Both the position numbers and the translations under genes were made by a program. 64,000 nt of DNA from an uncultured Alphaproteobacteria bacterium (lineage in GTDB: Bacteria > Pseudomonadota > Alphaproteobacteria > HIMB59 > GCA-002718135), in contig CACJSL010000001.1 of NCBI GenBank assembly GCA_902596065.1, forward strand, positions 48,782 through 112,781. Direction: 5' to 3'. Below are positions 9,794 to 39,329 of this stretch, piece by piece (the first letter of the stretch is position 1; every line of letters begins with the position of its first letter). Below the pieces are notes generated by a model. That model ran no database searches. It had not been told where the DNA came from and saw only the letters and a program-made list of their open reading frames with translations.

Positions 9794-10624
9794 TTAATTA
9801 ATAAAAAAATCTTTTGGCTGTTTTGAAATTTGAATAATATTTTTCTTTAATTTTTTTAAGGCAGCTGATTCTATTTGTCTTACTCTTTCTTTGCTAATAT
9901 TTAATTTTTTTCCAATCAGATCAAGTGTTATTTTTTTATCATTTAAATTTCTTGAAAGAATTATTTCTCTTTCTCTACTATTCAATAGTTCAATAGATTT
10001 TGCTAACCATTCATTTTTTAATTTATTATCATTATTTTTTTCAACAACTTCATCAGGTGTAAGAGAATTAGCTTTTAATATAGATAATAAATCTGGACCA
10101 TCTTCGTTATCTATAGTTTTATTTAAAGATAGATCCCCTAAGGCAAGCTTGTTTTCCATATGCTGAACTTGTAAGGGTTTTACATTTAAAAAATTAGATA
10201 TTTTTTCCACTTCTTCTTGGCCCATAAAATTGTGGGAGTCAAAATTGATTTGTTTTTTTAATTTATTTAAACCAAAGAATAATGTTTTTTGTGCAGCATT
10301 ATTACCATTTTTTACAATTGACCAATTTTTTAGAATATAGTTTTGAATTGTAGCTCTTATCCACCACTGGGAATAAGTTGATAATCTAAAACCTTTTGAT
10401 AAATCAAATTTTTCTAATGCATGCATAAAACCTATTGTACCTTCTTGCATTAAATCAAAGTGACTTAATCCATAGGAAGAATATTTTTTGGCTATTGAAT
10501 TTATTAATTTATTGTAAGCTCCTATTAATCTTAATAGAGATTTTTGATCATTATCATTTTGCCATTTTGTAATTAACTCATATTCTTCTTTTTTTTCTAA
10601 TGATTTTTGATTCATAAAATTCAA
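9794..10624 (-). CDS. rpoH: RNA polymerase sigma-32 (heat-shock sigma factor)
   Basis: Sigma-70 regions 2-4. STYSQWWIRATIQNYILKNWSIVK matches the alphaproteobacterial RpoH pattern. RpoH-box-like QKTLFFGLNKLK. Confidence 0.88.
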   Translation of the reverse strand: MNFMNQKSLEKKEEYELITKWQNDNDQKSLLRLIGAYNKLINSIAKKYSSYGLSHFDLMQEGTIGFMHALEKFDLSKGFRLSTYSQWWIRATIQNYILKNWSIVKNGNNAAQKTLFFGLNKLKKQINFDSHNFMGQEEVEKISNFLNVKPLQVQHMENKLALGDLSLNKTIDNEDGPDLLSILKANSLTPDEVVEKNNDNKLKNEWLAKSIELLNSREREIILSRNLNDKKITLDLIGKKLNISKERVRQIESAALKKLKKNIIQISKQPKDFFIN

Positions 10625-20763: not shown

Positions 20764-20791
20764 CTTGAAAATTATATAAAAACTCCCACAT
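20764..20791 (+). promoter_or_regulatory. Sigma-32 (RpoH)-type heat-shock promoter
   Basis: CTTGAA (20764-20769), 14-nt spacer, TCCCACAT (20784-20791), versus consensus CTTGAA-N13-15-CCCCATNT; sits upstream of hsp20. Confidence 0.55.
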
Positions 20792-20798
20792 TAGTAAT

Positions 20799-20852
20799 GT
20801 TGGTATGCCATTATGGGTGCTAACAAATTAACTTGCTTATAAAGGAGTTTTT
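20799..20852 (+). promoter_or_regulatory. ROSE-like RNA thermometer in the hsp20 5' UTR
   Basis: Hairpin 1 spans 20799-20824. Hairpin 2 spans 20830-20849: AAC-UUGCU-[UAUAA]-AGGA-GUU, the UYGCU anti-SD with a bulged G (20835) pairing the AGGAG Shine-Dalgarno. ATG at 20853. Confidence 0.55.
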
Positions 20853-21290
20853 ATGACTAGAAACCTATCCGTATGGAATTCGCTAAGACCATTTTCAGTA
20901 GGATTTGACTCTATTTTTGAAGAGTTTGATCGTATGTTAGAATCTACTGAGCGATATAATTCTAACTACCCACCTTATAACATTCGTAAAATAAATGAGA
21001 ATGATTATAAAATTGAAGTTGCTCTTGCTGGTTATAGCAAAGACGACATAGAGTTAGAATTAAAAGACAGCACATTGACTGTTCGCAATAAACAAAAAGA
21101 AAAAGTTGTTAATGATGATTCTAATGGAGTAATCCATAAAGGAATTTCCACAAGACAATTTGAGCGAGCATTTACAATATCTGAGGATATTAAAGTAAAA
21201 AATGCTGAACTACAAAATGGTCTCTTAAATATTGATTTAGAGCGTATTATTCCAGATGAAAAAAAAGCACGACTAATTAACATTAGTTAA
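20853..21290 (+). CDS. ibpA: Small heat-shock protein, Hsp20/alpha-crystallin family
   Basis: YPPYNI, alpha-crystallin domain (YKIEVALAGYSKDDIELE ... GLLNIDLER). Confidence 0.9.
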   Translation: MTRNLSVWNSLRPFSVGFDSIFEEFDRMLESTERYNSNYPPYNIRKINENDYKIEVALAGYSKDDIELELKDSTLTVRNKQKEKVVNDDSNGVIHKGISTRQFERAFTISEDIKVKNAELQNGLLNIDLERIIPDEKKARLINIS

Positions 21291-21300
21291 TTACATGGAT

Positions 21301-21327
21301 AGGGGCCTTGAAGGCCCCTTTTTTTTA
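21301..21327 (+). terminator. Rho-independent terminator
   Basis: AGGGGCC-TTGAA-GGCCCCT stem-loop followed by a run of nine T. Confidence 0.85.
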
Positions 21328-21342
21328 TTTATATAAAGTTTA

Positions 21343-38107: not shown

Positions 38108-39329
38108 GATCAGTAACAGGATTTAATTCCATACCAGCAGCAGTGATATTGCGAGGCAATGGTGTATATTGTGATTCCAAATCTAGTGGCTTTGCTCTTT
38201 TTGCCATTCTGTATAATCCAAAAAGACCAAGCATTGCATGCCCTATTAATAAATAAATAAAAAACCCATTAGCTCCAATCAAACTCATAAAACTAGAAAC
38301 CAATATTGGTCCCATTACCGCTCCTATTCCAACAAGAATAGCAAAAGAAGAACTTGCTGCAACTATTTCATCAGGTTTTAAAAAATCATTCACATGTGCT
38401 ACCGCCAGGGAATACATTGGTAAACAAACAGCTGAATAAAAAGCGACAAAAATAAAAAACATAATTAATGAAAGATAAGAGGAGCCTACAATAAGTAAGC
38501 ATAATCCAGAGGCTATAAAAGTAGTCCCTATTAATATGATTCTTCGGTCAATTCTGTCAGACAAATATCCAATAGGCCACTGGGAAAGTGCCCCAAAAGA
38601 ACTAATTATGACCATAAACATTGAAATTTCAAATAGCCCCAGTTCTTTAGAAGCGGCATACACAGCTCCATATCCAAAAACGGCACTATGAATTAGTCCT
38701 GTAAACAAAGCGCCAATAAATCCAAGTGGTGATATGATATAAAACTCTTTTAAGGATAAAGATTTTGGGTTTGAAAAATTTGGTTGCTCTGTAGTTGATA
38801 ATAATATTGGTAAAAGCGCAAAAGATAATAATACTGAAACTAATATAAATAAATCTACTTTAGCAGGATCACTAATGTTTAAAAGAAATTGACCACATCC
38901 AAGAAATGCAAAAGTTATAATCATATAAACTGATAAAAGTTGGCCACGTGTTTCATTTGTTGATTTGTCATTTAACCAACTTTCCATAATAACAAAAATG
39001 CCCGACAAACTTATTCCAGTTAATATTCTAATACAAAACCAAGAATAAGGATCTAATAAAACTGAGTGAAGAAGAATTGCAATTGATGCCAAAGAAGCCA
39101 AAGCAGCAAATACACGTATATGACCTACTCGCCTTAATAGTATCGGAATTAATAATGATCCTGATAAATAACCAACATAGTATCCTGCCACTATGACACC
39201 TGTAGAAAAAAAACCAAAACCTTCTATTACAGATCTGACTCCTATTAATGTTCCTTGCAGTCCATGTGCTAGACAAATTATTGCAAAGCCAAAAAAAAGG
39301 GCCCACGTTTTAGATAGTATAGTAGTCAT
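38094..39329 (-). CDS. MFS transporter
   Basis: 411 aa, 12-TM profile, LRRVGH loop motif. Confidence 0.8.
   Translation of the reverse strand: MTTILSKTWALFFGFAIICLAHGLQGTLIGVRSVIEGFGFFSTGVIVAGYYVGYLSGSLLIPILLRRVGHIRVFAALASLASIAILLHSVLLDPYSWFCIRILTGISLSGIFVIMESWLNDKSTNETRGQLLSVYMIITFAFLGCGQFLLNISDPAKVDLFILVSVLLSFALLPILLSTTEQPNFSNPKSLSLKEFYIISPLGFIGALFTGLIHSAVFGYGAVYAASKELGLFEISMFMVIISSFGALSQWPIGYLSDRIDRRIILIGTTFIASGLCLLIVGSSYLSLIMFFIFVAFYSAVCLPMYSLAVAHVNDFLKPDEIVAASSSFAILVGIGAVMGPILVSSFMSLIGANGFFIYLLIGHAMLGLFGLYRMAKRAKPLDLESQYTPLPRNITAAGMELNPVTDPIDE

Follow-up and report, generated by a model that had tools for sequence, protein, structure and literature searches.

The ROSE elements of Bradyrhizobium and other rhizobia (Rfam RF00435) and those of Escherichia coli and Salmonella ibpA (ROSE_2) precede genes of the same class as the one described here, and carry a core of U(U/C)GCU, a bulged G and the Shine-Dalgarno sequence (SD) within their 3'-proximal hairpin. 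The classical rhizobial elements have promoters of the sigma-70 type. A ROSE-like core has been defined as a U(U/C)GCU sequence that pairs imperfectly with the SD and contains a bulged G lying between a U.G pair on its 5' side and a C-G pair on its 3' side (PMC11342760). The closest described systems are the ibpA leaders of Pseudomonas putida and P. aeruginosa, which have two hairpins in 61-62 nt and act as thermometers behind a sigma-32 promoter (Krajewski et al. 2013, PMC3669281). In these leaders, transcribed from a promoter of the form NNCTTGAA-N13-18-CNCCATAT, heat opens hairpin II between 25 and 42 C while hairpin I remains closed, and deletion of the bulged G represses expression (PMC3669281). 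Both in Pseudomonas and in Providencia, the ROSE core confers heat induction, which is lost without the bulged G (PMC3669281, PMC11342760).

We analyzed a stretch of 64,000 nt (hereafter, the window) from the AT-rich genome (28% G+C) of an uncultured alphaproteobacterium that probably belongs to the HIMB59/AEGEAN-169 order, which is the SAR11 ‘subclade V’ (PMC10308909) and comprises two families. Upstream of its hsp20 gene we found what is likely, by analogy with the systems above, to be an RpoH-dependent promoter followed by a short two-hairpin ROSE-like RNA thermometer. The mechanism is already known as textbook heat-shock control; what is new is its occurrence in a group unannotated by Rfam. 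In the literature searched, we found neither a report of ROSE on the ibpA gene of SAR11 or HIMB59 nor a description of the hsp20 leaders of Pelagibacteraceae.

The features of the locus are collected in Table 1. The hsp20 product matches Pfam HSP20 (E = 1.4e-14), and its top NCBIfam model is IbpA, with 112 bits, under the equivalog cut-off. It is the sole small heat-shock gene, giving one match within its own genome. Because an intrinsic terminator comes after the stop codon, hsp20 forms a monocistronic unit; on the other side, the upstream O-methyltransferase gene ends 8 nt from the -35 box.

Table 1. Coordinates of the hsp20 locus and of the presumed sigma factor gene, numbered from the first nucleotide of the window.
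Feature	Position	Strand	Details
-35 box CTTGAA, RpoH (sigma-32)-type	20764-20769	+	Direct read
-10 box TCCCACAT, core CCCACAT	20784-20791	+	Direct read; conserved, with variants in relatives
Predicted transcription start	20796-20799	+	From promoter geometry, 5-8 nt past the -10 box; leader of ~54-57 nt
Element, both hairpins	20798-20849		Between the promoter (20764-20791) and the hsp20 ATG (20853)
Hairpin I, UGUUGGUAU-G-CCA / UUA / UGG-GUGCUAACA	20798-20825	+	Minimum free energy (MFE) fold, 5-45 C; RNAalifold consensus
Hairpin II, presumed thermosensor, AACUU-G-CUU / AUA / AAG-GAGUU	20830-20849	+	MFE and consensus folds
hsp20/ibpA-like small heat-shock protein gene	20853-21290	+	145 aa; ATG at 20853
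Intrinsic terminator AGGGGCC-UUG-AAGGCCCCU plus T run	21301-21329	+	3' of the hsp20 stop codon
rpoH-type sigma factor gene, presumed trans-acting partner	9794-10615	-	NF005143; RpoH-box-like motif

Regarding the promoter, we considered as RpoH-type a CTTGAA box with a C-rich -10 box (CCCCATNT or CNCCATAT) 13-18 nt apart, following the consensus given in PMC3669281. The initial annotation of this DNA had proposed a sigma-32 promoter made of CTTGAA, 14 nt and TCCCACAT, and its coordinates are exact, with the spacer covering 20770-20783. The -10 box matches five of the seven defined positions of the consensus quoted in PMC3669281, and those of the relatives, which read CCCCACAT or CCCCATAT, match six to seven. 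Among 43 distinct sequences from relatives, CTTGA is kept in nearly all (the exceptions, L030 and L032, have ATTGA). The spacing between the two promoter boxes and the base of hairpin I is near-constant in this set, with one 1-base insertion and one -35 box shifted by 1 base, while the sequence between the two boxes drifts; the stretch that separates hairpin I from the -10 box hardly varies in length. We found no sigma-70-like site near the gene, between 20600 and 21450, and rejected a sigma-70 promoter for hsp20.

The presence of rpoH in the window, also claimed in the initial annotation, is borne out: the product scores 246.9 bits against the NCBIfam sigma-32 subfamily NF005143 (cut-off 241) and contains the RpoH-box-like sequence QKTLFFGLNK. 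Against TIGR02392 it scores 243 bits, under the cut-off of 323. The promoter motif is shared by dnaK, which has CTTGTA-N15-CCCATAT located 64 nt 5' of its ATG (C1:36093-36120, 12.7 kb ahead of the window start), with a CTTG-to--10 distance equal to that of hsp20 (CTTG-N17-CCCAYAT). In the whole genome, CTTG-N16-18-CC(C/T)A(C/T)AT occurs three times, with 3.75 occurrences expected, and two of the three sites are those found 61 nt before hsp20 and 64 nt before dnaK. The strict promoter pattern gave no match in the genome scan, and the looser patterns showed no genome-wide enrichment, so the case for this promoter rests on its position and its conservation. Taken by analogy with the known promoters of this type, hsp20 would be transcribed in an RpoH-dependent manner.

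The motif also occurs at groES, which lies on contig C8, outside the window. Its upstream region contains CTTGAA-N15-ATTACAT, with a weaker -10 box, and a perfect CIRCE operator (CTAGCACTC-N9-GAGTGCTAA), which suggests HrcA control of groESL alongside RpoH. A ‘SAR11-groES’ RNA motif has already been described (supplement of PMC6429828), and the CIRCE region upstream of groES may be this same motif. CIRCE is absent at hsp20, for which CIRCE/HrcA control was ruled out.

Regarding the leader, the initial annotation had described ~54 nt folding into two hairpins, the second of them at 20830-20849, with UUGCU as an anti-SD against AGGAG, a single bulged G at 20835 and the AUG 3 nt further on. We recovered every one of these elements at exactly these coordinates; both hairpins appear in the RNAalifold consensus, and the core is invariant in the relatives. 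In hairpin I, G20807 is bulged. In hairpin II, the anti-SD (20833-20837) lies opposite the SD (20843-20847), with outer pairs A20830-U20849, A20831-U20848, C20832-G20847, U20833-A20846 and U20834.G20845, and, past the bulged G20835, inner pairs C20836-G20844, U20837-A20843 and U20838-A20842. Hence, in both the MFE and the consensus folds, the bulged G is predicted to be flanked by U20834.G20845 on one side and by C20836-G20844 on the other, and the hsp20 ATG follows 3 nt 3' of the helix. This predicted structure contains the whole of the published ROSE-like core. In addition, the element is located in the 5' leader of a small heat-shock protein gene, between promoter and start codon, and hairpin I provides the hairpin (at least one) that ROSE-like elements have 5' of the thermosensing one. 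The proposal of a ROSE-like element on hsp20 is thus upheld at the level of predicted structure, and the element is conserved in the family.

Isolated hairpin II becomes less stable with heat, with predicted values of -5.9, -3.0, -1.3 and -0.4 kcal/mol at 5, 25, 37 and 45 C, respectively, and hairpin I remains folded across the predicted 5-45 C range. The loss of stability of hairpin II with heat fits a thermometer, but it does not discriminate, because any weak hairpin would behave in the same way. A role of hairpin I as a terminator or attenuator was ruled out, with no U run after it.

The comparison with Rfam gave a divided answer: the best matches at this spot come from ROSE_3 and ROSE_2, but all three ROSE models stay under their gathering scores. 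At gathering thresholds, the whole 64-kb window gave no match. In a permissive search of 301 nt with 4227 families, the top match was ROSE_3 (RF02523), at 20799-20858, with 23.6 bits and E = 0.0066; it spans the full model (1-69) and misses the gathering score of 43. ROSE_3 probably represents the two-hairpin ibpA thermometers of Pseudomonas. Its alignment takes in both cores, AUGCC...GGGU in hairpin I and CU(c/u)GCU...AGGAG in hairpin II. The second-best match was ROSE_2 (RF01832), with 16.7 bits against a gathering score of 65, and ROSE (RF00435) gave no match at the locus in this permissive search. ROSE_3 was also found at the same spot in two relatives, with 29.9 bits (the maximum among relatives) and 24.8 bits. 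A search of the loci of eight relatives (6.8 kb) returned no ROSE match at E <= 1, and ROSE_3 was undetected in the SAR11 (Pelagibacteraceae) leaders at E <= 10. The gathering score is a curated cut-off trained on GC-richer sequences, and not a mechanistic feature.

By comparing the locus with the Pseudomonas ibpA leaders, we find the same type of promoter (CTTGAA-N13-18-CNCCATAT), a leader of similar size (~55-62 nt) and the same regulated gene (ibpA/hsp20). In both, the 5' end forms a stable hairpin I that has an AUGCC...GGGU core and a bulged G; hairpin II is weak, sets U(U/C)GCU against the SD, again with a bulged G, and leaves the AUG unpaired. Unlike Pseudomonas, a gammaproteobacterium, the host here is an AT-rich alphaproteobacterium; in its hairpin I, A-U and G-U pairs abound instead of G-C pairs, and its predicted hairpin II has a 3-nt loop and no flanking G-C clamps. 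The rhizobial and E. coli/Salmonella ROSE elements have three or four hairpins in ~70-120 nt. The initial annotation called the leader unusually short, a claim that finds no support, as the Pseudomonas leaders (61-62 nt) are equally short in large genomes.

Seen on its own, the hsp20 leader is statistically unremarkable. Its fold has a z-score of -1.35, and the predicted masking of its SD ranks 53 among 251 crude gene starts of the genome; not being an outlier, it draws no support from single-sequence thermodynamics. The bare motif U(U/C)GCU-N3-12-AGGAG-N-ATG was found 10 times genome-wide, with 1.5 occurrences expected. The case for the element is comparative.

Hsp20 is single copy and present in 56 of 61 related genomes, and the promoter and the two hairpins precede its gene in all nine of the nine genera of the window's family. 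We aligned 20 leader sequences of the family with MAFFT and built a covariance model, R1, from this alignment. Of 116 family genomes, many of which are incomplete, R1 detected the element in 96, with one copy each, and it gave no match in the genomes of the sister family. In the alignment, 97% of the cells are paired, compared with 42-54% in controls with the partners slid. Six pairs show double (compensatory) changes, and none of 500 shuffles equaled the covariation score. RNAalifold, given the 20 leaders with 6 nt of coding region, predicted both hairpins unguided.

The two hairpins are conserved in different ways. In hairpin I, 4 of the 11 pairs present compensatory changes within the family. 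Hairpin II shows almost no covariation, because both of its strands are invariant (CUUGCU, AGGAG and the bulged G are the same in the 20 sequences) and conservation of the SD strand is to be expected whatever its pairing. What argues for hairpin II is the consistent pairing and the invariance of its non-coding 5' strand, CUUGCU, which is kept even where loops and flanks diverge.

In a relative of another genus, the hsp20 promoter and leader recur in part as an additional copy (L079; G006:C4:95618-95685, - strand; 36.8 bits with R1). This copy contains ATTGAA...CCTCCCATAT, hairpin I and AACUUGCUU, without an AGGAG partner, and precedes a gene for an MFS-like membrane protein, 13 kb from the hsp20 gene of that genome. 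The ortholog of this gene in the window (38307-39329, - strand, 76% identical) has no upstream element, so the copy appears to be a lineage-specific partial duplication.

In the sister family (genus g9, L033-L046), Hsp20 is 41-42% identical and its gene has a three-hairpin leader of ~85-90 nt, hardly detected by R1 or Rfam. The promoter, CTTGAAA...CCCAAAT, is alike, as is the first hairpin, which has a GCC...GG core with a one-base bulge, and the last hairpin, UUAAC-G-CUU/AAG-GAGGUUAA, masks the SD and carries a bulged G. Unlike the leader in the window, there is an extra middle hairpin, the last helix is longer and more stable, and the motif is ACGCU in place of the U(U/C)GCU of ROSE.

The next nearest Hsp20 proteins found in a scan of named genomes, with 52-59% identity, belong to single-cell genomes of Pelagibacteraceae (SAR11). 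All 26 Pelagibacteraceae leaders searched match R1, with 24 to 45 bits. They present a CTTGAAA-N-CC(C/T)ATAT promoter, a hairpin I of the form GUAAGUC-G-CC/UUAU/GG-GGCUUAC, and AACUUGCUU...AAGGAGG followed by the ATG, with CUUGCU kept; they differ from the leader in the window by UCGCC instead of AUGCC in hairpin I and by AGGAGG as the SD. Shortness had been attributed to genome streamlining, an explanation that fits neither group: the equally streamlined sister family has three hairpins, and the Pelagibacteraceae leaders examined have, as a rule, two.

When the family and Pelagibacteraceae are taken together (49 distinct sequences, in an alignment fitted to the model), 91.6% of the cells are paired and 17 of the 19 pairs show double changes. 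Compensatory changes across these alphaproteobacterial lineages affect all 11 pairs of hairpin I in the model-fitted alignment. With MAFFT and RNAalifold, the mixed family/SAR11 set gave back hairpin I, with 7 of 9 pairs compensatory; hairpin II was not recovered from this set, because its variable-length loops misalign. Across a class sample of 401 genomes, R1 gave weak matches in seven genomes outside the order, five of them directly before hsp20/ibpA, one before an rpoH-like gene and one spurious.

The match at the rpoH-like gene (L086; G433:C58:4250-4318, - strand; 26.5 bits with R1) comes from an alphaproteobacterium of another family, with a genome of 2.1 Mb. There, a two-hairpin leader with CCUUGCUU...AGGAGG is found directly 5' of the gene, whose product has the RpoH box QKKLFFSLRR, instead of hsp20. 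This leader could be a ROSE-like element on rpoH itself.

In the mechanism that we propose for hsp20, RNA polymerase with RpoH, encoded 10 kb away, would start from CTTGAA-N14-TCCCACAT at the site predicted in Table 1, and the leader of ~55 nt would act as a short two-hairpin ROSE-like thermometer. Hairpin I, stable and at the extreme 5' end, would probably scaffold or stabilize the transcript. At low temperature, the weak hairpin II would pair UUGCU with AGGAG (U.G, bulged G, C-G) and block ribosome binding; as the temperature rises, its zipper-type helix would open and IbpA would be made. We infer both the temperature-dependent melting and the transcription start by analogy with the Pseudomonas ibpA leaders.

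One could argue that the heat control of hsp20 is only transcriptional, through the RpoH promoter, and that the hairpins contribute mRNA stability and a constant damping of translation, with no sensing in the natural temperature range. The location of hairpin I at the extreme 5' end, where stem-loops stabilize transcripts (a role discussed for Pseudomonas in PMC3669281), would fit this explanation, as would the predicted midpoint of isolated hairpin II, at ~45 C by extrapolation and far above sea-surface temperatures, and the unexceptional SD masking reported above. However, it leaves unexplained why the U.G/bulged-G/C-G geometry and CUUGCU are invariant across families whose loops and flanks drift, and in Pseudomonas and Providencia the same core does give heat induction, abolished without the bulged G (PMC3669281, PMC11342760). 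We therefore consider purely transcriptional control unlikely, though the best placed of the alternatives.

It could also be that most of the masking of the SD comes from the first part of the coding region, with hairpin II as a minor conformer. The weakening of hairpin II expected on folding over temperature (5-45 C) holds for the isolated hairpin, but when codons 2-7 are included (74-nt construct), the SD region is bound in the MFE structure at 20-45 C by the coding sequence and not by UUGCU, through a helix between GGAGUUUUUA at 20844-20853 and UAGAAAC..UCC at 20858-20870. The energy difference is small, however, and nearest-neighbor parameters do not model the ROSE core. Moreover, hairpin II emerges when the 20 family leaders, with only 6 nt of coding sequence, are folded to a consensus, the relatives with ACA for ACU at codon 2 would have a weaker alternative helix, and masking by the coding region offers no reason for an invariant 5' strand CUUGCU. 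Such masking thus seems very improbable as the main state of the leader. Least credible of all is a chance resemblance, in which UUGCU, AGGAG and a promoter-like string would have arisen by accident in an AT-rich spacer: the 10 copies of the bare motif in the genome and the promoter pattern at its expected frequency would allow it, but it is contradicted by the comparative data, namely the position-specific conservation in more than 90 family genomes and in Pelagibacteraceae, the compensatory changes, and the five of seven weak matches outside the order that stand directly before hsp20 genes.

We also noticed that the upper part of hairpin I (20804-20818) repeats the geometry of the thermosensor, with a U.G or C-G pair, one bulged G and C-G pairs. 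This module reads UAUGCCAU..UGGGU in the family (AUGCC/GGGU in the window), UCGCC..GGGG in Pelagibacteraceae and GAUGCCG..CGGGUC in the Rfam ROSE_3 consensus. A speculative reading, to which we give little credence, is that hairpin I is more than a scaffold and that the short ROSE consists of tandem bulged-G modules, from gammaproteobacteria to streamlined marine alphaproteobacteria, with a sequence-specific role of its own for hairpin I. If so, it could serve, for example, as a second sensor for higher temperatures or as a site where a protein or the ribosome docks.

The short two-hairpin ROSE-like thermometer that we favor belongs to an element that spans the whole order of these streamlined marine Alphaproteobacteria, with a close variant in Pelagibacteraceae, which are among the most abundant bacteria in the ocean. 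Regulators are very scarce in these genomes, so an RNA sensor that works without one, on the single small heat-shock gene they have, would be a rare handle on their response to warming. R1 could be used to annotate such leaders and to compare the stability of their helices between warm-water and cold-water lineages.
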